Assembly: GCA_028713125.1 (NCBI GenBank)
Contig: JAQTOU010000003.1
Location: forward strand, 467,286 to 531,285
DNA length: 64,000 bases
Reading direction: 5' to 3'
From: Elusimicrobiales bacterium
GTDB taxonomy: Bacteria; Elusimicrobiota; Elusimicrobia; Elusimicrobiales; UBA9959
Positions 3,887-41,411 of this stretch are shown here, in pieces; the stretch's first letter is position 1, and each line of letters opens with the position of its first letter. The position numbers and the translations under genes are program-made. The notes under the pieces are model-generated. The model did not search any database. It was not told where the DNA came from and worked only from the letters and a program-made list of their open reading frames with translations.

Positions 3887-3892
3887 CCAAAA

Positions 3893-13941: not shown

Positions 13942-13942
13942 A

Positions 13943-15422: not shown

Positions 15423-15484
15423 ATTAAGCAGGTTGCATAAAAATCGTAAAAATGGCAAAATATAGGGGTTGAGGGGAGAATAAA

Positions 15485-15682
15485 ATGAAAAATAATGATA
15501 AGATTTTGATTGCTTTCCTGGTTTCAGTCGGTCTATTTTCTTTTTGCCAGGCAAAGCAGTATGTAAATAACCTTTCCGATACAGAGAAGAAGGCCTTAGT
15601 CCCTGCAACCAAAGTGTCTCTTGATAAGGCTTTGGTTTCCACTGACCCGTATGAGGTCCATGAAATAAAGTACGGGGCCTAA
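15485..15682 (+). CDS. small secreted peptide (65 aa)
   Basis: GAGGGGAG RBS 5 nt upstream. Sec-type signal MKNNDKILIAFLVSVGLFSFCQA, then a 42-aa Cys-free hydrophilic part KQYVNNLSDTEKKALVPATKVSLDKALVSTDPYEVHEIKYGA. Confidence 0.55.
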   Translation: MKNNDKILIAFLVSVGLFSFCQAKQYVNNLSDTEKKALVPATKVSLDKALVSTDPYEVHEIKYGA

Positions 15683-15704
15683 ATAGTTTTAGGTAGAACT
15701 TGTG

Positions 15705-15743
15705 ACCGGACAGTACAATACTTCTTGTACTGTCCGGTTTTTT
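15705..15743 (+). terminator. intrinsic terminator/attenuator between the small peptide gene and the radical SAM gene
   Basis: Perfect 14-bp stem accggacagtacaa (15705-15718) / ttgtactgtccggt (15725-15738), followed by ttttt. The radical SAM ATG is 11 nt later. Confidence 0.8.
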
Positions 15744-15753
15744 ACAGCACGCT

Positions 15754-18032: not shown

Positions 18033-19705
18033 AAATTTTAAGCAGAGCGCTTTCGTATAACTGGAAATATTATGCCGCGGCGGTAGCGGTGTTCGTGGCT
18101 TTCTGGCAGATGTTCTCAATCTTCTCTTCCACGCGGGTGGCTGATGATAAGTTGTTGACGGCCATGCGTCAGAATGCGGATTATTTTGAGAAGGCTTTTC
18201 TTGAGGGGGATGTTTTTGAAACGCAGCGCATAATGTGGCGCATCAAGAATGACAATATAAAGCGGATAACTTTTCATCCTGTTGCGTTCGAGGGGTCGAA
18301 GTGGATATTTAAAGAGGCTATAGTCGGGAATCTCTACGACCGGCCGCGGGCGCAGCTTAACCGCAATGTGCCTTTCATTTCAAACGGCGCGGAATTAGGC
18401 CGGCTGGAATACGTTATCGATCTTGTGGATGTGAACTCGGCTGTTTTTGGGGAGAACTATGTCTTGTTCATAACCGTGGTGTTCTTTTTCATGGGACTGC
18501 TTGTGCTTTCAAATGTCGGGGCGATAAAAACTATTTTCAGCATAGAGCGCTGCGTGGATGAGACCAATGCGCTGGCGACCGCGGGCGAACATTCTAAAAT
18601 ACAGGATTCCATACAGCGCAGCATCCAGTCCCTGCCGGAAAGCCTGCGCGCTACTCCTTTTGCCGTGCTTATAGGCCGCCTTGCCGATGTGCTTCATAAG
18701 GCTTCACGCCTGGAGAGCGAGCTGGCTGTTTCAAAGGCCACTTCCGACCTGGCCGCGCAGGTGGCGCATGATATCAGGTCGCCGCTGGCCGCTCTGGGCG
18801 CCGCCGCCAAAGGCCTGGAGATGCCTGAGGACCAGCGCAAGCTGGTGGAAGGCGCCGTGGGCCGTATGCAGGGAATTGCGGATGACCTGCTGCAGCGTTA
18901 CCGCGCGCCTTCAGCAACGCATGCCGAGCCCAAACCGGCGGTTTGTGCGCTTGGCGGGCTTATAGAGCAGGTGCTTTCTGAAAAACGACTTCAGCATAAA
19001 GATAAGACCGGGGTTAAGATAGAGTTCAATGGCGCCTCCGGAGAGATCAAAGCCCTGGTCGAACCGAAAGAACTTCAGCGGCTGCTGTCCAACCTTGTTA
19101 ATAATTCCGTAGAAGCTTTTGACAAGAACGGCACAGTTGCAGTTTCCCTGTCGGGAGTAGACGGCAAAGTTTTGATAGAAGTGAAGGACAACGGCAAAGG
19201 CATCCCGGCGGATATCCTTTCGAAGCTCGGCCAGAAGGGGGAGACGCACGGAAAAACCGGCGGTAACGGACTCGGCCTTTACCATGCGCGCACTACAGTA
19301 GAGGCCTGGGGCGGCTCCTTCAAAATTAAATCAGAGCCGGGCAAAGGCACAGCCGTGCTGATAGAGCTTCCGCGTCCCGCCGCTCCGGTCGGACGTATGG
19401 TAGTCCTCCTGGACGATGATATGCTTGTGCATATGAACTGGAAACTGGCCGCGAAAGCCGCCGGGGTGGAACTGAAGGCTTATAAGACCAAAGAAGATTT
19501 TGCGGCAGGTATTGAAAGCCTGTCTAAAGACGTCCCTATCTATATAGATTCCGATTTGGGTAATAACGTTAAAGGCGAGGACATAGCCAAAGAGCTGAAT
19601 AATAAAGGCTTTACCAATCTCACCATGGCCACCGGCCACGGCGCGGATAAATTCTCCCACCTCCCTTGGCTCAAAGTAACCGGGAAAGAACCGCCTTGGG
19701 GCTAG
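18026..19705 (+). CDS. hybrid sensor histidine kinase (2-TM periplasmic sensor, HisKA, HATPase_c, C-terminal receiver)
   Basis: 559 aa. Overlaps the SBP gene by 7 nt. H-box AQVAHDIRSPLAAL, N-box LLSNLVNNSVEAF, G-boxes VKDNGKGIP and GGNGLGLY. The receiver shows VVLLDDD...IYIDSDLG...MATGH...GKEPP. Confidence 0.85.
   Translation: MVKILSRALSYNWKYYAAAVAVFVAFWQMFSIFSSTRVADDKLLTAMRQNADYFEKAFLEGDVFETQRIMWRIKNDNIKRITFHPVAFEGSKWIFKEAIVGNLYDRPRAQLNRNVPFISNGAELGRLEYVIDLVDVNSAVFGENYVLFITVVFFFMGLLVLSNVGAIKTIFSIERCVDETNALATAGEHSKIQDSIQRSIQSLPESLRATPFAVLIGRLADVLHKASRLESELAVSKATSDLAAQVAHDIRSPLAALGAAAKGLEMPEDQRKLVEGAVGRMQGIADDLLQRYRAPSATHAEPKPAVCALGGLIEQVLSEKRLQHKDKTGVKIEFNGASGEIKALVEPKELQRLLSNLVNNSVEAFDKNGTVAVSLSGVDGKVLIEVKDNGKGIPADILSKLGQKGETHGKTGGNGLGLYHARTTVEAWGGSFKIKSEPGKGTAVLIELPRPAAPVGRMVVLLDDDMLVHMNWKLAAKAAGVELKAYKTKEDFAAGIESLSKDVPIYIDSDLGNNVKGEDIAKELNNKGFTNLTMATGHGADKFSHLPWLKVTGKEPPWG
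18755..19705 (+). repeat. transmitter-receiver module, copy 1 (paralogous to 23653-24600)
   Basis: Nucleotide alignment by eye with 23653-24600 shows long identical runs, e.g. gtggcgcatgatatcaggtcgccgct and ggagatgcctgaggaccagcgcaa. Most codons are conserved. The 5' sensor parts are unrelated. Confidence 0.8.
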
Positions 19706-19726
19706 CTTTGCGGCCTCCTTTATAGA

Positions 19727-19756
19727 ACGGGCCCAGATGGGCCCGTTTTCTTTTCA
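19727..19756 (+). terminator. intrinsic terminator of the kinase operon
   Basis: acgggccc-agat-gggcccgt followed by tttcttttc. The U-tract runs into the first half-site of UAS site B. Confidence 0.75.
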
Positions 19757-19784
19757 AATGAAAATAAATATTTTCATTTGAGCA
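19751..19784. promoter_or_regulatory. two-dyad upstream element, site B
   Basis: TTTTCAAATGAAAA (19751-19764) and TTTTCATTTGAGCA (19771-19784), centres 20 bp apart. The order of the AA-centred and TT-centred dyads is swapped relative to sites C and D. The nearest sigma-54 promoters are about 570-600 bp away at 20329-20375. Confidence 0.5.
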
Positions 19785-19885
19785 TCTTTTGGGGTAGCCG
19801 GAAATTTGGCCGGACCCGCGCGGCCAGGCGGAATGGGGGAGGGCGGCAGTCCAATTGACTGCCGCCCCAGGCCCGGCCGGATAGT

Positions 19886-20278
19886 TTAATTCTCCCCTGA
19901 GCCGCCGCAGGCGTTGCAGGGGAAGTAGGCGTCGATACTCCCGCTTCCGCCGCAAAAATTGCACTCGTTGCTGCCGGCGCCGCCGCAGGAGCCGCAGGTC
20001 TGGTTCCCGCTGCCGCCGCAGAGATTGCAGGTCTGGGCCTCGCCGTAAACGGTCACGCTGCCTCCGCCTCCGCATTGGCCGCAGGTGTACTCGCCGTTGC
20101 CGCGGCAGTTCGAGCAGCGCTGCTGGCCGCCGCTGCAGGCGCCGCATTCATGCGACAGGTGGGTTTGCCCTGTTCCCCGGCAGGTTCTACACTCGCCCCT
20201 GGAAAGCGCTTCACTCTGAGCCACCCCGCTGATATTTATTGCGAACACTATAGCGATAATCAATTTTATCTTTTTCAT
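19886..20278 (-). CDS. secreted protein made of eight DnaJ-type CxxCxGxG zinc-finger motifs
   Basis: 130 aa with an AAGGAG RBS. Signal MKKIKLIIAIVFAINISGVAQ. The eight motifs are CRTCRGTG, CGACSGGQ, CSNCRGNG, CGQCGGGG, CNLCGGSG, CGSCGGAG, CNFCGGSG and CNACGGSG. Confidence 0.75.
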   Translation of the reverse strand: MKKIKLIIAIVFAINISGVAQSEALSRGECRTCRGTGQTHLSHECGACSGGQQRCSNCRGNGEYTCGQCGGGGSVTVYGEAQTCNLCGGSGNQTCGSCGGAGSNECNFCGGSGSIDAYFPCNACGGSGEN

Positions 20279-20328: not shown

Positions 20329-20344
20329 AGCAATTGTTATGCCA
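20329..20344 (-). promoter_or_regulatory. sigma-54-type -24/-12 promoter (minus strand)
   Basis: The reverse complement reads TGGCATAACAATTGCT followed by ccgcag. GG-N10-GC spacing is exact. It lies about 50 nt upstream of the 20278 start. Confidence 0.7.
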
Positions 20345-20359
20345 AGGTCGGTTAAGCTA

Positions 20360-20375
20360 TGGCATTAAAATTGCT
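20360..20375 (+). promoter_or_regulatory. sigma-54-type -24/-12 promoter
   Basis: TGGCATTAAAATTGCT followed by ctgtag. GG-N10-GC spacing is exact. It lies about 40 nt upstream of the 20416 start and only 15 bp from the divergent promoter. Confidence 0.75.
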
Positions 20376-22035: not shown

Positions 22036-22065
22036 CATTTGATAAGAACTATTTTCAAACGAAAA
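22032..22065. promoter_or_regulatory. two-dyad upstream element, site C
   Basis: TTTTCATTTGATAA (22032-22045) and TTTTCAAACGAAAA (22052-22065), centres 20 bp apart. The proximal centre is 84.5 bp upstream of the GG at 22143. Confidence 0.55.
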
Positions 22066-22141
22066 CATTTATCCAAGTTTGACCTTCTCAGCTGGTACTC
22101 TTTTATCCTGCAAATCCGGGTACTTGTACCCTTCTGGCTAC

Positions 22142-22157
22142 CGGCATAAAAAATGCT
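22142..22157 (+). promoter_or_regulatory. sigma-54-type -24/-12 promoter
   Basis: CGGCATAAAAAATGCT followed by tcgtcc. GG-N10-GC spacing is exact. It lies about 50 nt upstream of 22207. Confidence 0.7.
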
Positions 22158-22885: not shown

Positions 22886-24616
22886 ATGAAAACTGATTTT
22901 AAACTGTTTCTAACGGTATTGCTGATAAGCCTCGGCCTCATGGCAGGGGTGTTCGGGTATGAATATTATGATTTTATGTACGTTCAGAAAGGGCGCTTGA
23001 GTTATGAATCGGTCCATCTCGCTTACCAGGTAACGCCCCCGGCTATTAAGGAGTATCTTCGCGCAAGCGAGAAAGAAAAGGGCGATTTTTGTAAATGGGT
23101 CTTTACTCCGGGGAAAATGGTCTATGTTTCTGTCCTGGATCCCCAGGGGAAGATGGTGTACCTGTGTACCGATAAAAACAGGGAAGCTGTTACGGCGGAC
23201 ATAGAAAAGCAGCCCCGGCACGCTCTGATCGGCACGCAGAAGATAATCGGGATCCCGGTGCTGATCGCCCGCCATCACGTCCTTTCCAATAAGGGGAAGC
23301 TCGGTTCCCTGGAAATAGCCTTCTCCTGGCTGCCACTGCATAACGAGTTCAATAAGAAGATGAAGATCTTCTTCCTCTCCTTTGGTCTTTTTGCCGCGGT
23401 CCTCGGGGTTTTGCTGGTGTACAGGGTGAGGACAGTACTGGAGCCGCTCAGTAAATTTGCCGCCAGCCTCAAGGAGATAGAGGCGGAATGGCCGCTTTCC
23501 CAGGAGGAGTTCCAGCGGCGTCTGCAGCCAGAGAAAGCCGGCCCCGAAACAAAACCTGTTCTTGAAGCTTTGAGAACCTCTCTTGTGAAACTGCTCGAGC
23601 ACCAGGAAGCGCTGCGTAAGTCCGAAGAGCTGGCCTCATTGGGAAAACTATCCGCGCAAGTGGCGCATGATATCAGGTCGCCGCTCGCGGCTTTGGGCGC
23701 CGCGGCCAAAGGTCTGGAGATGCCTGAGGACCAGCGCAAACTGGTGGAGGGCGCTGTCAGCCGAATGCAGGGGATAGCGGACGATTTGCTGCAGCGTTAC
23801 CGCGCGCCTTCAGCAGCGCAGGCCGCGGCCAAACCGGCGGCTTGCGCGCTGGCTGGTCTTATCGAGCAAGTGCTCTCTGAAAAACGCCTTCAGCACAAAG
23901 ATAAAACCGGTATTAAAATAGAATTCAATAGCGCTCCCGGAGAGATCAAAGCCCTGGTTGAGCCGAAAGAACTTCAGCGGCTTTTGTCCAACCTGGTGAA
24001 TAATTCCTTGGAAGCTTTTGATAAAGACGGGACGGTTTCCGTTTCTCTTTCGGCAGTAGACGGCAAAGTTTTGATTGAAGTGAAGGACAATGGCAAAGGC
24101 ATACCGGCGGAGATCCTCGCGAAACTGGGCCAAAAAGGCGTGACGCACGGGAAAGCCGGCGGGACCGGTCTGGGGCTTTACCACGCGCGCACCTCGGTTG
24201 AAGGCTGGGGCGGGAGCTTTAAAATAAAATCCGTGCCCGGCAAGGGCGCCACGGTTCTTATAGAGCTGCCCTGCCAGCCGGCTCCGGCGGGCGGCCTGGC
24301 CGTGCTCCTGGACGACGATTCGCTTGTGCATATGAACTGGAAACTTGCGGCCAAGGCAGCCGGCGTGGAACTTAGAGCATACAAAACCCCGGAAGATTTT
24401 GCCGCCGCGACAGAGACTTTGTCCAAGGATGCGGCTATCTATATAGATTCCGATCTTGGCAAAGACATTAAAGGCGAAGACATCGCCAAAGACCTGCGCG
24501 AAAAAGGCTTTACCGATATAACCATGGCCACCGGCCACGGTTCCGAAAAGTTCTCCCGCCTCCCCTGGCTCAAAGTAACCGGCAAAGAGCCGCCCTGGGC
24601 AAGTGGACAGTCCTAA
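22886..24616 (+). CDS. hybrid sensor histidine kinase (2-TM sensor, HisKA, HATPase_c, C-terminal receiver)
   Basis: 576 aa. H-box AQVAHDIRSPLAAL, then the same transmitter/receiver as the 18026 kinase. The N-terminal 250 aa are unrelated to it. Confidence 0.85.
   Translation: MKTDFKLFLTVLLISLGLMAGVFGYEYYDFMYVQKGRLSYESVHLAYQVTPPAIKEYLRASEKEKGDFCKWVFTPGKMVYVSVLDPQGKMVYLCTDKNREAVTADIEKQPRHALIGTQKIIGIPVLIARHHVLSNKGKLGSLEIAFSWLPLHNEFNKKMKIFFLSFGLFAAVLGVLLVYRVRTVLEPLSKFAASLKEIEAEWPLSQEEFQRRLQPEKAGPETKPVLEALRTSLVKLLEHQEALRKSEELASLGKLSAQVAHDIRSPLAALGAAAKGLEMPEDQRKLVEGAVSRMQGIADDLLQRYRAPSAAQAAAKPAACALAGLIEQVLSEKRLQHKDKTGIKIEFNSAPGEIKALVEPKELQRLLSNLVNNSLEAFDKDGTVSVSLSAVDGKVLIEVKDNGKGIPAEILAKLGQKGVTHGKAGGTGLGLYHARTSVEGWGGSFKIKSVPGKGATVLIELPCQPAPAGGLAVLLDDDSLVHMNWKLAAKAAGVELRAYKTPEDFAAATETLSKDAAIYIDSDLGKDIKGEDIAKDLREKGFTDITMATGHGSEKFSRLPWLKVTGKEPPWASGQS
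23653..24600 (+). repeat. transmitter-receiver module, copy 2 (paralogous to 18755-19705)
   Basis: See copy 1. The proteins share ...LPWLKVTGKEPPW at the end. Confidence 0.8.
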
Positions 24617-24669: not shown

Positions 24670-24702
24670 GTTTCATTTGAGAATATTATTTTCAAATGAA
24701 AA
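24670..24702. promoter_or_regulatory. two-dyad upstream element, site D
   Basis: GTTTCATTTGAGAA (24670-24683) and TTTTCAAATGAAAA (24689-24702), centres 19 bp apart. The proximal centre is 95.5 bp upstream of the GG at 24791. Confidence 0.55.
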
Positions 24703-24789
24703 TATATTAAGCTGTTTAAATACTTCCAAAATGCAAACGAAACATGGTCTTTACTGCTAAATGCAGTGAAAATGGCCGTTTATTTGCAT

Positions 24790-24805
24790 TGGCATAAATA
24801 TTGCT
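24790..24805 (+). promoter_or_regulatory. sigma-54-type -24/-12 promoter of precursor A
   Basis: TGGCATAAATATTGCT followed by ttgtag. GG-N10-GC spacing is exact. Confidence 0.8.
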
Positions 24806-24852: not shown

Positions 24853-24984
24853 ATGGAAAATCTTAGGAATGTGATCGCGAAAGCCGGCATCGTACTGCCC
24901 GAAGTGACCCTAGCGCAGGAAGCCGATAAGAACTTATGCGGTCAGACCTGCATCGGCTGCACCACCGGTTTGCTCGGGGGCTGA
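24853..24984 (+). CDS. RiPP precursor peptide A (43 aa, Cys-rich core)
   Basis: MENLRNVIAKAGIVLPEVTLAQEADKNLCGQTCIGCTTGLLGG. AAGGGG RBS 9 nt upstream. The sigma-54 promoter lies inside the longer track ORF (24766), so the start must be the downstream ATG. Confidence 0.8.
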   Translation: MENLRNVIAKAGIVLPEVTLAQEADKNLCGQTCIGCTTGLLGG

Positions 24985-25104: not shown

Positions 25105-25120
25105 TGGCATAAAAAATGCT
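25105..25120 (+). promoter_or_regulatory. sigma-54-type -24/-12 promoter of precursor B
   Basis: TGGCATAAAAAATGCT followed by tcgtag. GG-N10-GC spacing is exact. Confidence 0.8.
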
Positions 25121-25167: not shown

Positions 25168-25296
25168 ATGGAAAATCTTAAGAATGTGATCGCGAAAGCC
25201 GGCATCGTACTACCCGAAGTGAACCTCGCTCAGGATGACAAATCGGTATGCGATGTGACCTGCGTCGGCTGCACCACTGGGCTGCTCGGGGCCTAA
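25168..25296 (+). CDS. RiPP precursor peptide B (42 aa, Cys-rich core)
   Basis: MENLKNVIAKAGIVLPEVNLAQDDKSVCDVTCVGCTTGLLGA. It has the same RBS and leader as precursor A. The core keeps C-x3-C-x2-C-TTGLLG. Confidence 0.8.
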   Translation: MENLKNVIAKAGIVLPEVNLAQDDKSVCDVTCVGCTTGLLGA

Positions 25297-25445: not shown

Positions 25446-26861
25446 ATGAATTATAGCGAAAATATCGGCGAGGCCTATTCTCTTCCTGACAATACATATT
25501 TGAGAAAAGAGAAACACAACGTTTGCCTTTATCTGGTCAGCCCTGAAACCAATATGATGGGCAACTACAATATCCTTTCACCATATCAGGCCATCCTGCT
25601 GGCCATGTTCGACGGGGAACAGACTTTAAGCGCCGTTTGCGCTTTGGCGGCGGAGGCCTTCGGCTCGAAAATGACGCCTGAGCAGATCTTTGAAACGCAT
25701 GTCAAGTTCTTGTTCGAGAAAGAATTTCTTGTGAAAGCGGCTGGCTGCAAAAAGAAGAACAGGTATTCTCCCGTCGATTTCATAATCCCGGCAGAACTGA
25801 CGGACCTGCGCAAAAACCGGCCGGAGCGCCCGCTGGTGGTGGTCTGGCATCTGACCGAGAAATGCTTCTGCTACTGCGATTATTGTTATGCCGAGCGTCC
25901 TTCTTTCCGGGCTGAGGAACTATTAACGGACCAGCGGATGCTGCAGTTGGCCGACGAGATAGTGGCGGCGGACGTGCGCGTAGTCACCCTGGCGGGAGGC
26001 GATCCGCTCCAGAACCCGCTGGTTTTCGACATCGTCGCCAAGCTGAAGTCGAATAATATCGCCGTCTACCTTTCCACAAAAACGCTGTTAGACGCCGCTG
26101 CGGCGGATAAACTTCGCGATGCGGGCATCGGCCTTATGCAGGTCTCGTTAGACTCGCTTAACCCGGAGACCTGCCTGAAACTGCACAAGCATCACGGGCA
26201 CGGGCTCAAAATGCTCGACTCGATCAAGCTGCTCAAGGAGCGCGGGCTCAGGGTCAACACCAATACCGTGGTTACCGGCGTTAACGTCCACGAGGTCCGC
26301 GCCCTGGTGGACAAACTGCTGGAACTGAAGGTGGACCGGATAGGCCTGGCCCAGTATTCAAAAAGCCTTTACCAGCATAAAGACTATTTGTTCCTCAGCC
26401 CGGAACAGAAAGAGTCCCTGCTCGCCCTGGTAAAGGAATATAAAGGCAAAGGCCATCCTGTCCATTGCTCCGAAGCGGGAGACTTCTCTTCTCTCTCTCT
26501 CGAAGCGAAAAAGAAAAAGTTCGCTAAAAGGACATTATGCAGCGGGCTATTCAACGGCGGGGTTATCTTCCCCAACGGGAAAATGACCATATGCGAGCAG
26601 CTGCCGGTCTCCAGCCCGTTTTTCTGGGGTGACCTCAGGAAACAGAGCCTGCTGGAGGCGTGGAGCAGCCCGGACTTCGCCCGGATAAAGCTTCCTCCCA
26701 AGGAAAATTTTAAAGGACGCCCCTGCTTTGACTGCAAGGATTTTGAAGACTGCCATACGAAATACGGGAGATGCGTGCGCAACGCCGTTCAGGCCTACGG
26801 GGATATGTGGGCCCCTGACCCGTCCTGCCCGGAATCCAAAGCGGGAAGCAGGGTGGCGTAA
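25446..26861 (+). CDS. radical SAM/SPASM peptide maturase with an N-terminal PqqD-like RRE
   Basis: 471 aa. The N-terminal SPYQAILLAMFDGEQTLSAVCALAAEAFG...FLFEKEFLV is PqqD/RRE-like. CxxxCxxC is in LTEKCFCYCDYCYAE. C-terminal SPASM-type cysteines are TLCSGLFNGGVIFPNGKMTICEQL and GRPCFDCKDFEDCHTKYGRC. Confidence 0.85.
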   Translation: MNYSENIGEAYSLPDNTYLRKEKHNVCLYLVSPETNMMGNYNILSPYQAILLAMFDGEQTLSAVCALAAEAFGSKMTPEQIFETHVKFLFEKEFLVKAAGCKKKNRYSPVDFIIPAELTDLRKNRPERPLVVVWHLTEKCFCYCDYCYAERPSFRAEELLTDQRMLQLADEIVAADVRVVTLAGGDPLQNPLVFDIVAKLKSNNIAVYLSTKTLLDAAAADKLRDAGIGLMQVSLDSLNPETCLKLHKHHGHGLKMLDSIKLLKERGLRVNTNTVVTGVNVHEVRALVDKLLELKVDRIGLAQYSKSLYQHKDYLFLSPEQKESLLALVKEYKGKGHPVHCSEAGDFSSLSLEAKKKKFAKRTLCSGLFNGGVIFPNGKMTICEQLPVSSPFFWGDLRKQSLLEAWSSPDFARIKLPPKENFKGRPCFDCKDFEDCHTKYGRCVRNAVQAYGDMWAPDPSCPESKAGSRVA

Positions 26862-27805
26862 TGATCAAAGTCGAGGGCTTGAAAAAAGCGTACGGCCAGG
26901 TAGCCGCCGTGGACGGGCTGAACTTCGGGGTAAAGAAGGGCGAATGCTATTGCCTCCTGGGCCCGAACGGGGCCGGCAAAACCACGACCCTGAAAATGCT
27001 CACCGGGCAGCTGGCGCCCGACGGCGGGCTGGTAACTATCTCCGGGCTTGACCCGCTGGCGGACGAGAAAAAGGTGCTCGAGCTGATAAACATCATCCCG
27101 CAGCACCATGCCATGGACCCGTTCCTTACGGTGGAAGAGAACCTGGTCTTCTACGGGCTGCTCCAGAAAATAAAATTAAAGAGCATTAAAGCCCGTCTCA
27201 ATCACTGCCTGGACGCTTTCGAACTGCGAAAAATTAAAGATAAAAAGGTGACCGAGCTTTCAGGCGGAGAATATCGCCGGGCGCAGATCTCCCGCGCGTT
27301 CATCAAGGAAGCGCCCCTTCTTTTCATGGACGAGCCCACGGCGAACCTGGATATTATTTTCAAGAACAAGTTCTGGGACCTGATCAAAGAGGAAAAGAAA
27401 AAAGGCGTCACGGTCCTGCTTAACACCCACGATTTCAACGAGGCGGAAGTCCTGAGCGACAGGGTCGGGTTCGTCTTCAAGGGCAAGATCGTCTGCGACG
27501 ACACGGTCGGGCGGCTGAAAGGCCTGACCGCCAAGAGCATTATCGCGATAAAGTTCGTCTCTCCGGAAGCGGCCAGCGAGTCGGCCGGGGAACTTCGCGG
27601 CATTTTCGGCGAGGAGAACGTCTCGGAGGCCTCTGCCGGCACGATGGAATTAAAGGTGCGGGAATTCGACGGGAAGTTCTTTTCCCTCCTTCAGCGGATC
27701 CCGGCCCGCGACATCGTTTCGTTCGAGGTCAAACATCCGACGCTTAACGACGTCTTCCGGGTCTTAGGAAAAATCCATGCTGGCAATACTGTGGCGAGAT
27801 CTTAA
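26861..27805 (+). CDS. ABC transporter ATP-binding protein
   Basis: 314 aa. TAATG overlap with the maturase stop. Walker A GPNGAGKTT, signature LSGGEYRRAQISRA, Walker B LLFMDEPTANLD. Confidence 0.9.
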   Translation: MIKVEGLKKAYGQVAAVDGLNFGVKKGECYCLLGPNGAGKTTTLKMLTGQLAPDGGLVTISGLDPLADEKKVLELINIIPQHHAMDPFLTVEENLVFYGLLQKIKLKSIKARLNHCLDAFELRKIKDKKVTELSGGEYRRAQISRAFIKEAPLLFMDEPTANLDIIFKNKFWDLIKEEKKKGVTVLLNTHDFNEAEVLSDRVGFVFKGKIVCDDTVGRLKGLTAKSIIAIKFVSPEAASESAGELRGIFGEENVSEASAGTMELKVREFDGKFFSLLQRIPARDIVSFEVKHPTLNDVFRVLGKIHAGNTVARS

Positions 27806-28535
27806 AACACAATACACGAAAGTGTTCTGGCTGATAGCGAACTTCTGCCCGCCGCTGTTCTATCTGTTCTTTTTCGCCCTGATCTTTTCCAGTTCGATGA
27901 AACCTATGATGCCGGGCGGACCCCAGACCAGCTACCTGACGTTCTTCCTGCCCGGGCTCATCATCATGCAGTCTTTCAGCGTCTTCCAGACGACTTTCTC
28001 GCTGGTACACCTCGACAAAAGACTGAAGATCCTGGAAACCATACGGACCACCAGGACTACCGTGGTCGAGTATTTCTTCGCCAAATCCATAGGCGCGCAG
28101 GTGCTGGCTTTCGCCAGGGCCCTGCTGGTGTATTTGATCGGCGTAGTGTTCTTTCATATAACTTTGAGCGCCTCGAGCTTTCTTGCCCTTTCGCTGACGC
28201 TGCTGCTGTCCAATGCGATCTGGTTCAATCTCGGTTTCGTGCTTGGGTTCATGATAGAAACTGAGGAAAAAAGGGATATCTTCCAGCAGCTGTTCACCCT
28301 GCCCGTGACTTTTCTTTCCACTATTTATTATTCCGCCAGTAATGTGCCCGGCGGGCTCGCCGCCTTCGTAAGGCTCAATCCCCTGACCGCGGCCAGCAAT
28401 CTTTCGAGAGGCGCGCTGCTGGACCCCGGGTTCTCAGGCCGCGCGGACGCCTATTTCCTGTCCGTTTACCTGGCGCTCAGCCTCTGCGGCGCCTGGGCTT
28501 TTTTCCGCTTCACGCGCAAAGAGTCTTTTTCATAA
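27777..28535 (+). CDS. ABC-2 type transporter permease
   Basis: 252 aa with about 6 TM helices. It overlaps the ATPase gene by 29 nt. The exact start is uncertain. Confidence 0.75.
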   Translation: MLAILWRDLKTQYTKVFWLIANFCPPLFYLFFFALIFSSSMKPMMPGGPQTSYLTFFLPGLIIMQSFSVFQTTFSLVHLDKRLKILETIRTTRTTVVEYFFAKSIGAQVLAFARALLVYLIGVVFFHITLSASSFLALSLTLLLSNAIWFNLGFVLGFMIETEEKRDIFQQLFTLPVTFLSTIYYSASNVPGGLAAFVRLNPLTAASNLSRGALLDPGFSGRADAYFLSVYLALSLCGAWAFFRFTRKESFS

Positions 28536-28650: not shown

Positions 28651-28678
28651 TAATGAAATAAATATTTTCATATGAAAA
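28645..28678. promoter_or_regulatory. two-dyad upstream element, site E
   Basis: TTTTCCTAATGAAAT (28645-28659) and TTTTCATATGAAAA (28665-28678). The proximal centre is 71.5 bp upstream of the GG at 28743. Confidence 0.5.
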
Positions 28679-28741
28679 TATTCCGAGCTGTTTATGTGCC
28701 GTCCCCGCTGGGAAAGGGCAAAAAACAGCCATGCCTACTAA

Positions 28742-28757
28742 TGGCATATAAATTGCT
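28742..28757 (+). promoter_or_regulatory. sigma-54-type -24/-12 promoter
   Basis: TGGCATATAAATTGCT followed by ctgtac. GG-N10-GC spacing is exact. It lies about 80 nt upstream of 28838. Confidence 0.75.
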
Positions 28758-29443: not shown

Positions 29444-29626
29444 TCAGGCTTTATCTATCTGGGCGAGTATCTTGATTATTTCCGCGGCGGCGGCGTTCAT
29501 CAGGGCCAGCATCTCTTTCTTCTCGACCGCCGAGCAATCCTTGTAAAGTTCCGCGGCGCTTTTGAGGCTGGAGCACTTGGACCGCAAGTCGTGCAGAAGC
29601 TTGCTGCTGTCTGGCGTAGTGGTCAT
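29444..29626 (-). CDS. 60-aa helical protein with an Hpt-like His motif (candidate phosphotransfer protein)
   Basis: ATGA start/stop overlap with the upstream enhancer-binding protein gene (29626-29623). MTTTPDSSKLLHDLRSKCSSLKSAAELYKD... resembles the Hpt motif H-x-L-K/R-G/S-S-x-x-x-L/G. Confidence 0.45.
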   Translation of the reverse strand: MTTTPDSSKLLHDLRSKCSSLKSAAELYKDCSAVEKKEMLALMNAAAAEIIKILAQIDKA

Positions 29627-30972
29627 TTCTTTTCTCCCTCCGGTTCTATCCCCAGCTTCTTCAGGGTCGAATATAAAAGCCTTGTCGAAATTTTAAGGTC
29701 GGCCATTGTTTTGGTCTTCTTGCCCTCGTTCTCACGCAGGTTCCTCGTGATTATTTCGCCGGAAACTTTATCCAGCGCGGCCTCGAGGCCGTTCGCCATA
29801 GCGTAGGCGTAAAGCCCGCCGTCACCGGCGGAGGCGGGCTGCGCCGCTTCCCGCCCTTTAAGATGCTTCGCGACGGTGTTTATATCCACCCGGCCTTCCG
29901 AGCCGCTCGAGACCAGGTCCACGAACTTCTTGAGCTCGCGCACATTTCCGGTCCAGGAGTAAGTCTCCATATAAGCCCTCGCTTCCGGGGTGAAAGACAG
30001 TCTCCGGCGGCCGCTGGTGAAGTGCTGCACCAGGGGGGCTATGTCGCAGGCCCGGCGCGAGAGCGGCTTGAGGTTTATAGTGTAGCCGTGCACGCGCTGG
30101 AAAAGGTCGAAGCGCATTTTGCCCTGGGCGATCAGCGTCTGCGGGTCTTCAAGCGTCGCGCTTATGATGCGGAACTCGGAATGCTCCGGCTTTTCAGAGC
30201 CGAGCGGGTAGAAAGAGCGCTCCTCTATGGCCTTCAGCAGCTTCATCTGCATTCCAAGGCTCATCGTGCCTATCTCGTCGAGGAAAAGAGTTCCCTTATG
30301 CGCTTCCAGGAGACGGCCTTTGCGGGTTTCGTGGGCCCCGGTGAAAGCGCCTTTTTTATGGCCGAACATTTCGGCCTCGAGCAGGTCCTCGGTATAAGCC
30401 GAGCAGTTTATCGAGACGAAAGCGCCTTCGCGGCCTGAATGTTCGTGGAGTATCTTGGCCAGCGAGGTTTTCCCGGTGCCCGACGGCCCGAGTATAAGGA
30501 TCGGCAGCTCGGTTGGCGCGTATTTCAGGGCTTCGGAAGCGGCGGCTTTGGTTTCCGGGTCGCAGGTGATGAAGGCCGAGGAAAAAATATCTTTTGCGCC
30601 GGCGGCTTTCCTGTTCTGTATGAACTTGCGCAGGATGTCGGCCACATTCGATTCTTCGTTTCCTTTCGCGTAAAAATCATTTGCGCCAAGCGCGTAGGCC
30701 CGGTCGATAGTCTCGTCCGAGTCGGAGCTGGATACCACGACGCAAAAAACGCCTCTCGCCGCCGCGGCGGCTATCGCTTTAAGGCCGGAGTAATCGTCGT
30801 CCGGGCCGAGCATCAGGTCGAAGAAGCCGATATCGTATTTCACGCTTTCGATCTTCTTGAGCGCCGTTTTCAGGTCCCCGGCCAGGTCGATATTATGTCC
30901 CGCCAGATGCGCGGACATGACCTTCTGCGCCAGTTTATCGTCTTCCAGAACCAGTATATTGAGTTTTTCCAT
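29623..30972 (-). CDS. sigma-54-dependent response regulator (NtrC-family bacterial enhancer-binding protein)
   Basis: 449 aa. Receiver domain (ILVLEDD...FFDLML...). AAA+ domain with Walker A GPSGTGKTS, the GAFTGA loop (HKKGAFTGAHE) and LFLDEIG. C-terminal Fis-type HTH (KTKTMADLKISTRLLYSTLKKLGI). Confidence 0.9.
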   Translation of the reverse strand: MEKLNILVLEDDKLAQKVMSAHLAGHNIDLAGDLKTALKKIESVKYDIGFFDLMLGPDDDYSGLKAIAAAAARGVFCVVVSSSDSDETIDRAYALGANDFYAKGNEESNVADILRKFIQNRKAAGAKDIFSSAFITCDPETKAAASEALKYAPTELPILILGPSGTGKTSLAKILHEHSGREGAFVSINCSAYTEDLLEAEMFGHKKGAFTGAHETRKGRLLEAHKGTLFLDEIGTMSLGMQMKLLKAIEERSFYPLGSEKPEHSEFRIISATLEDPQTLIAQGKMRFDLFQRVHGYTINLKPLSRRACDIAPLVQHFTSGRRRLSFTPEARAYMETYSWTGNVRELKKFVDLVSSGSEGRVDINTVAKHLKGREAAQPASAGDGGLYAYAMANGLEAALDKVSGEIITRNLRENEGKKTKTMADLKISTRLLYSTLKKLGIEPEGEKK

Positions 30973-30976
30973 AATG

Positions 30977-31010
30977 TTCTCGCCTGAGAAGAAATGTTTT
31001 CAAATGAAAA
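30977..31010. promoter_or_regulatory. two-dyad upstream element, site F (in the divergent region between the regulator and the sigma paralog)
   Basis: TTCTCgccTGAGAA (30977-30990) and TTTTCAAATGAAAA (30997-31010), centres 20 bp apart. The element starts 5 bp upstream of the regulator start codon (30972). The proximal centre is 91.5 bp upstream of the GG at 31095. Confidence 0.55.
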
Positions 31011-31093
31011 TATATGCCCCGAACTTATTATACAGAAATTGGGCGTGAGCCGCATCTCGAATGGGAACTCCGGTGAGCGGCGCTTGCGTCCAA

Positions 31094-31109
31094 TGGCATA
31101 AAAAATGTT
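31094..31109 (+). promoter_or_regulatory. sigma-54-type -24/-12 promoter (degenerate -12: TGT)
   Basis: TGGCATAAAAAATGTT followed by ctatta. GG-N10 spacing is exact but -12 is GT, not GC. It lies about 45 nt upstream of 31154. Confidence 0.5.
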
Positions 31110-31153
31110 CTATTATAGAATAACAGGTTCTAAAGTGCGGACAGGAGATCGTT

Positions 31154-32209
31154 ATGAAACCTCACGGCTTTAAATTCACCGCTTCAACAGGAGCGAGAAC
31201 TTCGACCGCCCTCATGGGCGCGCTTAAGATGGCGCATATGGCCGGGATGAGCGAGGAAGAGTTCGAGAAATACCTCAAAGAAATGGAGGGCGGCCGGGTT
31301 TTCCAGTTGCTTAAAACCTCCGGGGTGATAAATCTGAGCGAATTCCCCGCGGCGCGCTACGCGGCGCGCCAGTACGCGGGTTACGGCCTTAAACTTTCCG
31401 GCGGCGACCTGCCCGAGCTGGCCGACGGCAATGGCGACCTGGTAGAGCTTATACAGGGCGTAGGGCAGGAGAAGTTCGAGGCCTGCTTCCTCAAAGACGC
31501 CGTGATGAGCGATATAGAGCGCGCCGAAGAATGCGATATTACCGTGAAAGACGCGGAGCGCCTGCGCGATTTCGTGAACAAGGCTTTCATCCAGGCGGAG
31601 TTCGAGGGGGCCGTGGAAGCACCGGCGGCGAAAGTCTTCAGCGCCGTGGCCGGGATAGAAGTCAAGGACGGCGAGCCGCTGCTCGCTTTCTTCCACCGCG
31701 AGATCTGGAAGGGCCGCTATAAAGTGGACTCCGACAAGCTCGCGCAGCTTCTGCCCGGACTCGAGCCGGCCGAGCGCAGCCGCGTGGAAAAAATGCTGAA
31801 AAAAATTGAATTCGCGGATAAGCGCAAGACCACGCTCTACCGCACGCTCGAGATCCTGATCAGCGTGCAGGCGGATTACCTTGCCAGCGGAGAGCCGGGC
31901 CGGCGCCGCCCGCTTTCGCAGAAAACCCTGGCCAAGAATCTCGAGGTGGACGCGAGCGTTATAAACCGGCTCGTTTCCAATAAGTCCATACAAATGCCAT
32001 GGGGCATGGAAGCGCCGATAAGCGTGCTGCTGCCGACTTCAAAAGCGGTTAACCTGGAGCGCCTTTACGCCATAGCGGGCGAGAAGCCGGAACTGAGCGA
32101 TGAAAAGCTCCGCGTCGAGCTGAAAACCCGCCACGGCGTGGACCTCTCCCGCCGCTCGGTGGCCCAATACCGCAAAGACCTGAGCCTTGCGGCCTCCGGG
32201 GACAGATAG
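31154..32209 (+). CDS. short, divergent sigma-54 (RpoN) family protein
   Basis: 351 aa with an AGGAGA RBS. The C-terminus aligns by eye to RpoN: RKTTLYRTLEILISVQADYL (cf RNDTLLRVSRCIVEQQ), the HTH LSQKTLAKNLEVDASVINRLVSNKSIQMPWG (cf ...HESTISRVTTQKYLHSPRG) and an RpoN-box-like SRRSVAQYRKDLSL (cf ARRTVAKYRESLSI). The N-terminal region I is poorly conserved. Confidence 0.7.
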   Translation: MKPHGFKFTASTGARTSTALMGALKMAHMAGMSEEEFEKYLKEMEGGRVFQLLKTSGVINLSEFPAARYAARQYAGYGLKLSGGDLPELADGNGDLVELIQGVGQEKFEACFLKDAVMSDIERAEECDITVKDAERLRDFVNKAFIQAEFEGAVEAPAAKVFSAVAGIEVKDGEPLLAFFHREIWKGRYKVDSDKLAQLLPGLEPAERSRVEKMLKKIEFADKRKTTLYRTLEILISVQADYLASGEPGRRRPLSQKTLAKNLEVDASVINRLVSNKSIQMPWGMEAPISVLLPTSKAVNLERLYAIAGEKPELSDEKLRVELKTRHGVDLSRRSVAQYRKDLSLAASGDR

Positions 32210-32241: not shown

Positions 32242-32646
32242 ATGAACAAACACGGAAATATTGCTTACGCTGCGGCGCTGGCAGCAGTCATGTCTTTAGC
32301 CGGGTGCACGGCTAAGTCCGGAGGAACGGTTCACATCGCTTCCCTCTCGCCTGAGGCTTATGCGACGGTGCGGGTAGGGGATAAAGTGGATCTTAAGGTG
32401 GAAGTTGATTATACGCTGGAGAAAAAGACAGGGACGATCTCCCTGGTGGTTCAGAAAGACGACAATTCTTCGCTGGGTTCCGTCACTGAGAAAGTGAAAG
32501 AGGGAAGCGGGCGCGTAACTTTAAAACATACCTTTACCGTGCCTGAAACCCGCACAGTAACCGTCTTCGTGCCGATGGACCTGGAGGGGTATAATAAAAC
32601 CATGATAGTGGACAGCAGGACTTACAATATAGCCCCCAGGAAATAA
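32242..32646 (+). CDS. lipoprotein, unknown function
   Basis: 134 aa with an AAGGAG RBS. Lipobox MSLAGC. Confidence 0.6.
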   Translation: MNKHGNIAYAAALAAVMSLAGCTAKSGGTVHIASLSPEAYATVRVGDKVDLKVEVDYTLEKKTGTISLVVQKDDNSSLGSVTEKVKEGSGRVTLKHTFTVPETRTVTVFVPMDLEGYNKTMIVDSRTYNIAPRK

Positions 32647-32662: not shown

Positions 32663-32695
32663 AAAAAAAGCCGGCCTATAGAGGCCGGCTTTTTA
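32663..32695. terminator. bidirectional intrinsic terminator
   Basis: aaaaaaagccggcct-ataga-ggccggcttttt lies between convergent genes. Confidence 0.75.
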
Positions 32696-38819: not shown

Positions 38820-41411
38820 CTATCCCCAGGGGGGCTCTTTCCCGGTCACTTTCAGCCAGGGCAGGCTTTGGAAATGTTCCGGCGGGTGGCCGGTGCTAAG
38901 GGTCAGGTCGGTGAAGCCCTGGCCGCGCAGCTTCCCGGCGACCTCCTCGCCCTTAACTCCCCTGCCCAGCTCGGAATCTATATAAAGCGGCGTATCTTTA
39001 GGCAGGCCCTCCAGCCCGGTGGCCAACTCTTCAGGGGTTTCATAGGCGCTGAATTCTACTCCGGCCGACTTCGCGGCCAGCTTCCAGTTCATCTGCACCA
39101 GCATATCGTCGTCCAGCAGCACGGCGCGGGTCGGCCGTTTTACGGTCATGACCGAGATCGGGACCAGGCCGGCCAGCCCTTTCTGGACTATCCTTATCTT
39201 GAGCCGCCTCGCTTCTTCTATCACCGGTTTCTCCTCGTGGCGGCTGGTCACTAGTATCACCCGGGAGCCCAGGCCGAGCTCCCGCGCGAGGCTCAGCCCG
39301 GTTTCGGTATAACCGATCAGCTCGTAATCGAAAAGATAGAGAGCGCCCATGGCTTTCTCCCTGTCGCTCTGCACCCATTTCCGCAGCCGCACCGGCTCGA
39401 TGAAATGGATGATGTCTATATCGTGCTTCGCTACGCCAGCCTGCTTGAACCGGCCCTGCCACACGTGGTGGATGGTGGAATCGTCGTCGAGCACCACGAC
39501 CGGCCTGCCCGGGACCAGCTCCAGTCCCCGCACGAAATCCGCGGGCATTTCCGACCGCGGAAGCTTTACCGTGATGACGGTGCCTTTGCCCTGCTCCGAA
39601 GCTATGGCGAGGCTGCCGCCCCAGCTTTCAACCGCGCTCTTGGCGTGAGAAAGTCCCAGCCCGTAGCCGCCGGCCTTTCCGTAGGTCCCGCCGCGCTGCC
39701 CCAGCTTCTTCAGGATCTCCTTCGGTATGCCTTTGCCGGTGTCGGCGACCGTAAGCAGGACGGTTCCGTTCTCGTGCGTCAGGCCCAGCCTTACGGAGCC
39801 CCTCTCTCCCAGCACCTCTACCGCATTGTTGACCAGGTTTGAAATGACGCGCCCGAACTCCACCGGCTGGACCCTGGAGAAAAGTCCGTAGGATTCCTTC
39901 GTCAGCTCGAAATCTATGTGGATCCCCGGCCTGGAGCCGAACTGCATCCGCTTTTCCGTGATCACCGGGTCTATCACGCTTGAGAGCAGGCTCAGCTCCA
40001 GCGGCTCGCCGGCTCCGTCCTTGTCCGCGGCGGGCCGCAGGCGAGTTTTCTCCAGCAAATTATTGGCTATGTCGCGTATCCTGTTGACGGCGTGCCTCAC
40101 CATGACGCGCTGCTCCTCGGGCAGCTGGGACGCGTTCTTGAGCGAGGCGTCCAGCGCGGCCAGCGGCGAGCGGATATCGTGCGCGACCTGCGAAGCTATC
40201 TGCCCGACCGCGGCTATGCTGGTTACGCGGGTCAGGTCTTTCTGCATCTTGTTCCTCTCCCTGACGGCGAAATCCGTCTTGGAAGCGGCCAGGTAGATCT
40301 GCTCCATGTCAGTCAGGACTATGAAAACGAAGGAGAACAGCACGATGAAGATGCCGTAGGGTATCGTATTGGTACCGGAGATATAATTCGCGTAGACCAA
40401 AATATCATGGGTCAGGGCGGCCAGCAGGATGCCCGTCCCCGCCGCCCGGCTCGCATGATCCGGCAGTTCGCGGCGCTTGAAGAGGGTATGTCCGAGCACC
40501 AGGAGCAGGTTGAAATAGACGAAGTAAAGCCAGGCCGCGTAGAAGTCGGAAGTTCCTTTCAGGGTGGGGCTGAAGAGTATGCCGGCCAGGAACACGGCGC
40601 TGCCGGCCGCGTTGAAAGCCCTGAAATGCCGCGCCGACCGCAGATTGCCGTAAAAATAAGTAAGGAAGAAATAGAAGAACAGCGTCGCTACCGTGCAGTT
40701 GAACTTGTAGATCGCCGCGTAATCCATGATGAAGAAGTAGAGGACGCGGCTCAGTGAGAGCGAGAACAGCGCGCCGGCGACGCAGGCGGCCGAGAAAGTC
40801 CTGTAGCTGCTGAAGTTGGGATGGCGCCTGAACAGGCCGAAGATGAATACGCCGACGAAAGCGAACAGGATGGAAAGAAGCATCAGCAGGTCGGTCTGGA
40901 CATAGTTGCGCAGGCGGGTCTTCTGCCTTATATGGTCCCAGCTGCCAAGCTCCAGGTCGTCGAGCGGGCCGGAGCCGAGGCGGAAGAACTTGTCTATCTT
41001 CAGGACGGCCTCGTTCGTATCGCCGAGCAGCCAGCCGGGCAGGTAGTAAGAGCTGTGCACGGCCTGCAGGTGCCAGCCGGCGGCCGGGACCCGGCCGGTA
41101 AGGCCCAGCTTCTTCCCGTTGAGATAAAACTCGCTTACGTCCCCGGTCCTGCCGACGTAAATTGCGGGGTCCGTGAGGCCTTCGTAATCTTTTTTAAGGA
41201 TGGGCCAGCTTATGCAGTAGACCCCGGTCTTCCGCTCCAGGTATTTTTTAAGCTCGGGCAGCGTCCCCACTTTAACGCGGGCCGGGCCCGGCTTTTCGCA
41301 GGCGGGGCCTTCGGCGAAGGAGAAGATCTTCCCGCCCAGGTCCGCCGCCGCCGCCATATTGGACAGGGCCAGCGAGAGGAGAAGGGAAATAAAGGAGCTG
41401 CGTGTATTCAT
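38820..41411 (-). CDS. hybrid sensor histidine kinase, 7TMR-DISM type, with two receiver-like domains
   Basis: 863 aa. Signal peptide plus an extracellular domain, then seven TM helices. H-box SQVAHDIRSPLAAL, HATPase_c (VADTGKGIP, GGYGLGLS), then two receiver-like domains. The last 100 aa are paralogous to the other two kinases and end LPWLKVTGKEPPWG. Confidence 0.85.
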   Translation of the reverse strand: MNTRSSFISLLLSLALSNMAAAADLGGKIFSFAEGPACEKPGPARVKVGTLPELKKYLERKTGVYCISWPILKKDYEGLTDPAIYVGRTGDVSEFYLNGKKLGLTGRVPAAGWHLQAVHSSYYLPGWLLGDTNEAVLKIDKFFRLGSGPLDDLELGSWDHIRQKTRLRNYVQTDLLMLLSILFAFVGVFIFGLFRRHPNFSSYRTFSAACVAGALFSLSLSRVLYFFIMDYAAIYKFNCTVATLFFYFFLTYFYGNLRSARHFRAFNAAGSAVFLAGILFSPTLKGTSDFYAAWLYFVYFNLLLVLGHTLFKRRELPDHASRAAGTGILLAALTHDILVYANYISGTNTIPYGIFIVLFSFVFIVLTDMEQIYLAASKTDFAVRERNKMQKDLTRVTSIAAVGQIASQVAHDIRSPLAALDASLKNASQLPEEQRVMVRHAVNRIRDIANNLLEKTRLRPAADKDGAGEPLELSLLSSVIDPVITEKRMQFGSRPGIHIDFELTKESYGLFSRVQPVEFGRVISNLVNNAVEVLGERGSVRLGLTHENGTVLLTVADTGKGIPKEILKKLGQRGGTYGKAGGYGLGLSHAKSAVESWGGSLAIASEQGKGTVITVKLPRSEMPADFVRGLELVPGRPVVVLDDDSTIHHVWQGRFKQAGVAKHDIDIIHFIEPVRLRKWVQSDREKAMGALYLFDYELIGYTETGLSLARELGLGSRVILVTSRHEEKPVIEEARRLKIRIVQKGLAGLVPISVMTVKRPTRAVLLDDDMLVQMNWKLAAKSAGVEFSAYETPEELATGLEGLPKDTPLYIDSELGRGVKGEEVAGKLRGQGFTDLTLSTGHPPEHFQSLPWLKVTGKEPPWG

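Follow-up and report, generated by a model that had tools for sequence, protein, structure and literature searches.

A compact, activator-linked sigma-54-like protein of Elusimicrobiota and its probable regulatory circuit

What is a protein that carries the DNA-binding end of sigma-54, is far shorter than a canonical RpoN and lies beside an enhancer-binding activator? We addressed this question for the gene at 31154–32209 (+) in a 64,000-nucleotide (nt) stretch of contig JAQTOU010000003.1 from an Elusimicrobiales bacterium. We refer to the whole stretch as the window, and all positions are counted from its first letter. An earlier note on this DNA had read the 351-residue product as a divergent sigma-54 paralog, possibly dedicated to the local regulon. 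We consider it likely that this open reading frame (ORF) encodes an activator-linked member of a compact, phylum-specific family of sigma-54-class factors, embedded in the regulatory circuit set out below. In this organism the protein is most likely a general sigma-54 that reads GG at the -24 element, and not one private to a regulon.

The sole Pfam match of the 351-residue product is Sigma54_DBD (PF04552), at residues 218–351 with an E-value of 4.5e-17, and the domain as a whole, made up of a long helix, a helix-turn-helix (HTH) and the RpoN domain, spans residues 205–351 (31766–32206, +). A PDB profile search matched this domain to 5ui5 (E 2e-12). Using hhalign, the DNA-binding part aligned to residues 318–475 of E. 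coli sigma-54 at E 3e-21, against a canonical profile that is not diverse, comprising two sequences, E. coli and B. subtilis SigL. When the family was aligned to E. coli sigma-54 the DNA-binding domain alone aligned, with an E-value of 6e-15; the E. coli query was identical to PDB chain 9mse_M. The AlphaFold (AF2) model of the full-length protein has a predicted local distance difference test (pLDDT) score of 73, and its only PDB matches in Foldseek were sigma-54 chains (E 4e-8), some aligned over more than 400 columns. The HTH expected to contact the -12 element was placed by the alignment and the AF2 model at residues 256–275 (31919–31978, +), with S268 and R272 invariant. The RpoN box, SRRSVAQYRK, lies at residues 332–341 (32147–32176, +), where hhalign equates R333 and R334 with R455 and R456 in the E. 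coli box ARRTVAKYR, an assignment that is also supported by covariation with the -24 dinucleotide. The claim of the earlier note that the C-terminal DNA-binding part of sigma-54 is kept was therefore borne out, as was its description of a short, divergent sigma-54-type protein.

The protein is one of a large family specific to the phylum and no private oddity. A homolog search with the 351-residue protein returned 284 proteins. Among the 120 of these that were listed, the proteins are about 350 residues long, match PF04552 only and come from Elusimicrobia wherever they are named. A profile search of 1.84 billion representatives gave 256 proteins of 340–390 residues at E ≤ 1e-30, mostly aligned over their full length, and Sigma54_DBD was matched by all 49 diverse members, whose identity ranges down to 22%. 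All named family members are from Elusimicrobiota. We also scanned one genome per GTDB species, a scan that reaches relatives of at least 39% identity and is silent on Elusimicrobium minutum and Endomicrobia. This yielded 80 loci, mostly from metagenome-assembled genomes named Elusimicrobia or Elusimicrobiota, with a few labelled only 'bacterium' and one from the complete genome CP096137.1. Every protein found with the N-terminal 210 residues as query also has the sigma-54 DNA-binding domain; one of them is from Endomicrobiales. A pseudogene or truncation artefact is ruled out by the constant length of the 256 representatives and their full-length conservation.

Does the family read promoters as sigma-54 does? 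We grouped the loci by the dipeptide of the RpoN box that corresponds to R333/R334 and tabulated the -25/-24 dinucleotide in nearby sites of the form NNCAY-N5-TTG(C/A)T(C/T) with an A/T-rich spacer. The dinucleotide is GG at 72 of 74 sites near the 63 S[RR]S loci and GC (TGCCAT) at 6/6 sites near the four S[RQ]S loci. Seven loci with L, S or A at the first position (S[L/S/A]R S) have GG at 0/12 sites (6 TG, 5 AG and 1 CG), and three S[CR]S loci are mixed, with one GG and one AG. On a separate deep branch, the RQ proteins of L209 and L211 lie at an orthologous divergent promoter that reads TGCCAT, bringing the RQ total to 8/8 GC, and the QQ protein of L207 has TACCAG at the same promoter (one site). 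Substitution at position 1 of the dipeptide accompanies loss of the first G, and substitution at position 2 accompanies loss of the second. Both types can occur in one genome: in JBAYJD01 the RR copy L032 follows a GG promoter, and the RQ copy L042 lies between GC promoters. Among the loci, TGCCATRAAAATTGCTC was found only in those encoding an RQ protein. A metagenome scan for TGCCATRAAAATTGCTC returned 120 matches, none encoding the family, so these are chance matches and do not provide an out-of-sample test.

These natural changes run in the same direction as experiments in E. coli, where the -24 GG is read by R455 and R456, and where the R456H, R456Y and R456L variants prefer A, C or T in place of the second G, creating orthogonal sigma/promoter pairs; wild-type sigma-54 has about 1.4% activity on the partner promoter of R456H (PMC12096077). 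Since the covariation agrees with these experiments, and a canonical RR sigma-54 is not expected to act on such promoters, the family protein must be their specificity factor. Thus, on the sequence evidence, the family appears to read -24/-12 promoters. The same observation bears on a rival explanation, in which the protein is no sigma factor at all but a regulator with a borrowed sigma-54 DNA-binding domain, acting as a repressor, decoy or recruiter at -24/-12-like sites without binding core RNA polymerase. The GC, AG and AC promoters are unusable by a canonical RR sigma-54 (PMC12096077), leaving the protein that co-varies with them as the obvious sigma candidate.

The region between the sigma gene and its divergent neighbor contains the elements of an enhancer-dependent circuit. 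The sigma gene lies behind a -24/-12 promoter, TGGCAT-AAAAA-ATGTT (TGGCATAAAAAATGTT), at 31094–31109 (+), in which the -12 element has GT instead of GC. This TGTT form is also present at the window promoter at 7085 and in several relatives, and is therefore a normal variant. Further upstream is a two-part upstream activating sequence (UAS). The first half is the inverted repeat TTCTC-GCC-TGAGAA (TTCTCGCCTGAGAA) at 30977–30990, 5 nt from the activator ATG, and the second is TGTTTTCAAATGAAAATAT (TTTTCA-AA-TGAAAA) at 30995–31013, which includes the palindrome TTTTCAAATGAAAA. A TATAAT hexamer at 31027–31032 (−), within the block TATTATACAGAA, is the likely -10 element of a sigma-70 promoter for the activator, and TAGAAT at 31116–31121 (+), a weak candidate from a consensus scan, may be the sigma-70 -10 from which the sigma gene is expressed at a basal level. 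We aligned this intergenic region from 22 sequences, the window and 21 relatives from its clade, and at least 80% of them share each of five blocks. Two are the UAS palindromes, the third is TATTATACAGAA, which reads TATAAT on the minus strand, and the fourth, TGGCAT.AAAATTG.TCT, has the same position as the window promoter. The fifth is a TATAAT-like hexamer located 24–30 nt downstream of the -12 element in most relatives, and is degenerate in the window.

The -24/-12 promoter and the UAS shared with the divergent activator are kept in 38/38 copies of the activator-divergent clade, and an autoregulatory loop is therefore very likely. Every element described in the earlier note was found, among them the altered -12 element and a UAS starting 5 nt from the divergent start codon, and the loop that it proposed is supported as well. 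The -10 element of the activator lies upstream of the UAS, such that activator bound there would sit in its own leader, and we infer that the activator is negatively autoregulated by this means. One relative (L009, about 3640–3900) has an insertion of about 200 nt composed of repeated units (…ACGGCATGGCCATAGGCCTAAT…), absent from the other 21 intergenic sequences. In deep branches (L211, 350–585; L207 and L209, upstream of the activator) the palindromes are unlike those of the window, with GTTTGC-N4-GCAAAC in tandem and CTCTCCGTCGGAGAG, and their position relative to the divergent -24/-12 promoter is retained. Thus, the DNA specificity of the activator seems to have drifted while the architecture remained unchanged.

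The divergent gene (29623–30972, −) encodes a 449-residue enhancer-binding protein with receiver and AAA+ domains. It matches Response_reg (E 1e-9), Sigma54_activat (E 2.9e-55) and AAA_lid_14 (E 3.9e-10) in Pfam, and its translation contains GAFTGA and GPSGTGKT. A C-terminal HTH, absent from the top Pfam matches, was read by eye. The protein thus has the features of an NtrC-type activator: a receiver domain, an AAA+ domain with GAFTGA and, by eye, a C-terminal DNA-binding helix. It is the only bacterial enhancer-binding protein in the window. We compared gene neighborhoods for 82 family copies, from the window and the fetched loci, of which 74 were informative and eight lie too close to a contig end to tell. 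An orthologous activator adjoins the sigma gene in 58/74. It is divergently upstream in the 38 copies of the window's clade (the window and 37 related loci), directly upstream on the same strand in 16 and just downstream in four; the remaining 16 have no adjacent activator. Within the family, the window copy is the conserved core copy and not a lineage-specific extra.

The promoters in the window indicate the reach of the circuit. The motif GGCAT-N6-TGYT occurs eight times, against 1.0 expected, and 0/100 shuffles reached eight. All eight sites lie upstream of an ORF start, at 55–95 nt in seven; the minus-strand site is 196 nt from the listed ORF, for which an earlier ATG is likely. The window promoters share the extended consensus TGGCAT-AAAAA-TTGCT(C/T)-TGTAG, and no TGCCAT-type site is present in the window. 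The 19-nt UAS has seven matches (six distinct sites) at up to three mismatches, against 0.01 expected. Five copies are situated 80–105 nt upstream of -24/-12 promoters, each preceded about 20 nt away by a weaker palindrome. Besides the sigma gene, promoters of this kind are TGGCATAGAAAATGTT at 7085–7100 (+; UAS 6993–7011), CGGCATAAAAAATGCT at 22142–22157 (+; UAS 22050–22068), TGGCATAAATATTGCT at 24790–24805 (+; UAS 24687–24705), preceding a precursor-like peptide, and TGGCATATAAATTGCT at 28742–28757 (+; UAS 28662–28681). Three further -24/-12 promoters in the window have no nearby UAS. The promoter TGGCATAAAAAATGCT at 25105–25120 (+) lies before a second precursor-like peptide, and a back-to-back pair occupies 20329–20375 (20329–20344 on the minus strand, 20360–20375 on the plus strand). 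The sixth UAS copy, at 19749–19767, stands apart from any -24/-12 promoter: none lies within 100 nt, and this pair, the closest, is about 600 nt away.

We propose the following mechanism. The C-terminal 150 residues would read TGGCAT-N5-TTGCT, R333/R334 contacting the -24 GG and the HTH the -12 element. The first 56 residues would form a degenerate region I, the target of the GAFTGA loops of the activator, and residues 57–204 would take the place of the canonical core-binding domain and hold the protein to RNA polymerase. The phosphorylated activator would bind the tandem TTYTCA-N2-TGARAA palindromes and open closed complexes at the five UAS-bearing promoters of the window, including those of the radical-SAM peptide cluster and of the sigma gene. 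Through its own -24/-12 promoter the sigma gene would exert positive feedback on the sigma factor, while activator bound to the UAS in its own leader would damp activator synthesis. Basal sigma expression would probably come from the weak sigma-70-type -10 that overlaps or follows the -24/-12 promoter.

We next consider the N-terminal two-thirds of the protein. Residues 12–56 (31187–31321, +; …LKMAHMAGMSEEEFEKYLKEMEGGRVFQLL) are modeled by AF2 as helices at 12–31, 34–46 and 48–56. The lone hhalign match of the N-terminal 210 residues to sigma-54 falls here, over 26 columns that pair family positions 28–53 with E. coli region I residues 24–50 at a weak E-value of 0.024–0.045. The N-termini of distant members are clearly region-I-like by eye, for example LEIQQTQSQQ…LLEMPEEEFNKLISEAENNPLFKRL. 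Region I is thus probably kept in a degenerate form, in line with the earlier note, which had called it barely recognizable. Residues 57–204 (31322–31765, +) occupy the place of region II and the core-binding domain and have no Pfam, PDB or hhalign match. They are well conserved among 35 diverse N-terminal sequences, in which G104, F108 and F112 never vary and at least 90% have L113, A166, G187 and Y189, yet this region cannot be shown to be a core-binding domain.

Several observations weigh against our reading. The 351-residue product scores 64.5 bits against TIGR02395, the NCBIfam rpoN equivalog, below the cutoff of 277.35. It has no Pfam AID or CBD match even at E ≤ 1, Sigma54_AID and Sigma54_CBD match 0/49 diverse members, and 35 fragments covering the N-terminal 210 residues have no match to either domain at E ≤ 10; canonical E. 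coli proteins do carry PF04963 in the same precomputed annotation. The PDB profile search with the N-terminal part returned nothing, a core-binding domain included, and hhalign against E. coli sigma-54 gave no match to that domain. An AF2 model of residues 55–212 alone is of low confidence (pLDDT 62.7) and retrieved only non-significant winged-helix folds with Foldseek, so that a remodeled core-binding domain can be neither demonstrated nor excluded from it. With no such domain found by hidden Markov model (HMM), profile or fold search, and with a model of this quality, core binding is wholly inferred. The covariation sites are partly orthologous and represent few independent events, about two for RQ and one or two for position 1; for L207, L209 and L211 the promoter is in each case one site selected for its position. 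On the side of our reading, canonical RpoN was missing from both Elusimicrobia genomes that two published surveys could draw on (PMC3162934, PMC3372290), and E. minutum was reported to have neither sigma-54 nor activators (PMC3162934); since the surveyed genomes also lack activators, the surveys say little about the present lineage.

How did the checks proposed in the earlier note turn out? The HMM comparison retained the DNA-binding domain only, with AID and CBD unmatched in the 351-residue protein and the 49 members. Structure prediction gave a divided answer, the full-length model matching sigma-54 chains and the model of residues 55–212 matching no significant fold. The note had held that lack of a core-binding domain would count against its proposal, and none was detectable by Pfam, PDB profile, hhalign or Foldseek. 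This finding, and a middle region weakly like winged-helix or sigma-70 r3/r4 HTH modules, are what a non-sigma regulator would predict. Such a regulator would not, however, account for the full enhancer architecture, with a tandem UAS 80–105 nt upstream and an adjacent GAFTGA activator, and would have no use for a region-I-like N-terminus that is kept across the family and is pointless outside the holoenzyme. Together with the promoter covariation described above, we regard a regulator of this kind as improbable.

A different solution to the missing domain would be a split sigma factor, its core-binding part supplied by the separate 60-residue ORF at 29444–29626 (−; LLHDLRSKCSSLKSAAEL…), whose start overlaps the activator stop by 4 nt. 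This small ORF is present in 52 loci, always attached to the activator/sigma pair, with H12, D13, K17 and C18 invariant. In co-directional and distant clades an ORF of about 60–65 residues (LLHD.xSKCxSLKxAA…) sits between the activator and sigma genes, and the three genes keep this order in members that share only about 35% identity with the window protein. The co-conservation is what a split factor would require, but 60 residues are far too few for a core-binding domain. The ORF has no Pfam or PDB relative, and hhalign against sigma-54 gave an E-value of 0.56 over 14 columns. We therefore rejected it as a detached core-binding domain, and a split sigma has in our estimate very little chance of being correct. 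The HD…LK…AA pattern of this ORF may faintly recall the H-box of histidine kinases, a candidate reading. The window encodes three histidine kinases, at 22886–24616 (+), 18026–19705 (+) and 38820–41411 (−), the first with about 100 extra C-terminal residues that are receiver-like by eye.

We return to the compact sigma-54-class factor and ask whether it is the only sigma-54 of its cell or an extra one. The dedicated paralog of the earlier note would require a canonical three-domain rpoN elsewhere in the genome, with the short protein serving the local radical-SAM peptide regulon and competing with, or insulated from, the housekeeping sigma-54. The tight linkage of the gene to one activator and to UAS-bearing promoters fits such a role, and paralogs do exist within the family, several genomes having two or three copies. 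In a neighbor-joining tree, an 'unlinked' clade (L004, L004b, L034, L035, L038, L039, L042 and L046) is sister to the activator-linked clade of the window. The unlinked copies immediately precede genes for radical-SAM/SPASM enzymes, small Cys-rich peptides and ABC exporters, whose -24/-12 promoters match the copy in type. For the RQ copies these are TGCCAT promoters and clusters for ribosomally synthesized and post-translationally modified peptides (RiPPs), showing that dedicated sigma-54-like factors are real in the phylum. In L004, a UBA9634 contig (2080–2460 and 11740–11860), two RQ-type copies 9 kb apart each have one and the same tRNA-like sequence before them, whole at the first copy and fragmentary at the second, with a DUF4143 ATPase gene between the copies; the pair seems to stem from a duplication connected with a tRNA-associated insertion.

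The window copy itself fits a dedicated role less well than these RQ sister copies. It is an RR protein with GG promoters, which would not be insulated from a canonical sigma-54, and an activator-linked ortholog conserved over deep branches down to 35% identity, no recent extra. It aligns over its full length to proteins of about 350 residues throughout Elusimicrobiota, so that 'paralog' is not the right term for this GG-reading core copy. Across the window and 0.7 Mb of related loci, a small sample that covers a tiny fraction of the genomes, a tblastn search with the E. coli and SigL region I and core-binding parts found no coding sequence for either. The two surveys that found no canonical RpoN in Elusimicrobia (PMC3162934, PMC3372290) point the same way, and we consider a dedicated extra paralog unlikely. 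A 2025 survey defined sigma-54 by three Pfam domains with strict cutoffs (PMC12316311), a filter by which the compact family is missed entirely. The reported absence from E. minutum (PMC3162934) therefore says nothing about the rest of the phylum, in which the compact form is common beside its cognate activator.

Comparison with known systems indicates which parts are shared. Canonical sigma-54 (477 residues in E. coli) shares with the compact protein the long helix, HTH and RpoN box, TGGCAY-N5-TTGCW promoters, a GAFTGA AAA+ activator with upstream palindromes and, probably, an N-terminal Leu/acidic helix ending in an …E.NPLF-like motif. In contrast, the compact protein has no Pfam AID or CBD and no region II, the 150 residues before its DNA-binding domain are unmatched, and its gene lies behind a -24/-12 promoter and is linked to an activator and the 60-residue ORF. 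The usual neighbors of canonical rpoN are lptB, hpf and ptsN, and canonical rpoN is not known to be linked to an activator gene. Aquifex aeolicus has a sigmaN of about 398 residues. Sigma factors situated in the clusters they serve are familiar among the extracytoplasmic function (ECF) group of sigma-70, whose genes, by analogy with the present arrangement, lie beside a regulator and their targets and use their own promoter type. ECF factors are nevertheless an unrelated protein class and, unlike the compact family, need no enhancer or AAA+ activator.

Truncated RpoN-like proteins of Neisseria are regarded as non-functional. They resemble the compact family as sigma-54 relatives missing a canonical domain, whereas the compact family keeps the DNA-binding part, shows purifying conservation across the phylum and co-varies with its promoters; the Neisseria sequences lack one or more domains, the DNA-binding one included (PMC12316311). 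Rhodobacter sphaeroides has several specialized RpoN paralogs that are full three-domain proteins (PMC12316311). As there, several sigma-54-type genes with distinct target sets occur per genome, but the Elusimicrobiota copies are compact and their specificity change maps to the RpoN-box arginines. The engineered R456H/Y/L set couples a change at the same RpoN-box position to one at the second G of the -24 GG (PMC12096077). The changes described here differ in being natural, in a compact scaffold and in extending to the R455 equivalent, with specificity read from sequence.

New here is the compact sigma-54-like variant, for which core binding, activator dependence and the specificity switches are predicted; the sigma-54 DNA-binding domain, -24/-12 promoters and GAFTGA activators were known. 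If the protein is a true sigma factor, the canonical core-binding domain is dispensable or replaceable, and the family offers a minimal, divergent sigma-54 for structural comparison. R456-type switches would already exist in nature, along with an R455-equivalent switch that the engineering screen did not recover, a ready source of orthogonal sigma/promoter pairs and a natural case of insulation between sigma-54 regulons. A broader proposal, to which we give rather less than even chances, is that Elusimicrobiota have a distinct sigma-54 architecture, with a 150-residue non-homologous or remodeled module in place of region II and the core-binding domain, and have repeatedly rewired it into orthogonal GG, GC, AG/TG and AC channels, some of them for radical-SAM peptide clusters in the same cell.

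Within the window, the circuit explains how a 22-kb, partly low-GC island for peptide modification, proteolysis and export comes under a single activator and a single promoter type. Its genes specify two proteases, one of CAAX type and one of the S41 family, two exporters, one a MacB-type ABC exporter and the other of ABC-2 type, a TldD/PmbA pair, three histidine kinases, two radical-SAM enzymes and two near-identical precursor-like peptides of 42–43 residues. The peptides, at 24853–24984 and 25168–25296 (+), share the pattern MENL(R/K)NVIAKAGIVLPEV…C..TC(I/V)GCTTGLLG(G/A) and are each behind their own -24/-12 promoter. They are followed at 25446–28535 (+) by a radical-SAM/SPASM enzyme and an ABC-2 exporter pair. 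Peptides, enzyme and exporters together look like a RiPP cluster under the same activator. The GC content is 0.44–0.50 over approximately 6000–20000 and 0.56–0.65 elsewhere in the window. This low-GC stretch corresponds to the part of the island missing from the syntenic locus L001, where M16 peptidase genes abut the activator, and the island may have been acquired.

Immediately downstream of the sigma gene, starting 32 nt past its end, is a gene for a putative lipoprotein of 134 residues (32242–32646, +), probably co-transcribed with it as a two-gene unit. A terminator-like hairpin with a 13-bp stem closes this unit at 32665–32694 (+). An Rfam 2dG-II purine-riboswitch aptamer (RF03165) was found at 15323–15393 (+), with a score of 85.6 bits where the gathering score is 60. 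It lies upstream of a radical-SAM gene (15754–16629). In distant relatives RF03165 immediately follows the sigma-54-like gene or precedes the activator (L207 7191–7261, L209 7150–7220 and L080 2292–2362). Finally, genes for MotA/ExbB-like, MotB/OmpA-like and FliG-middle-domain proteins lie in a row at 58988–61505 (+).

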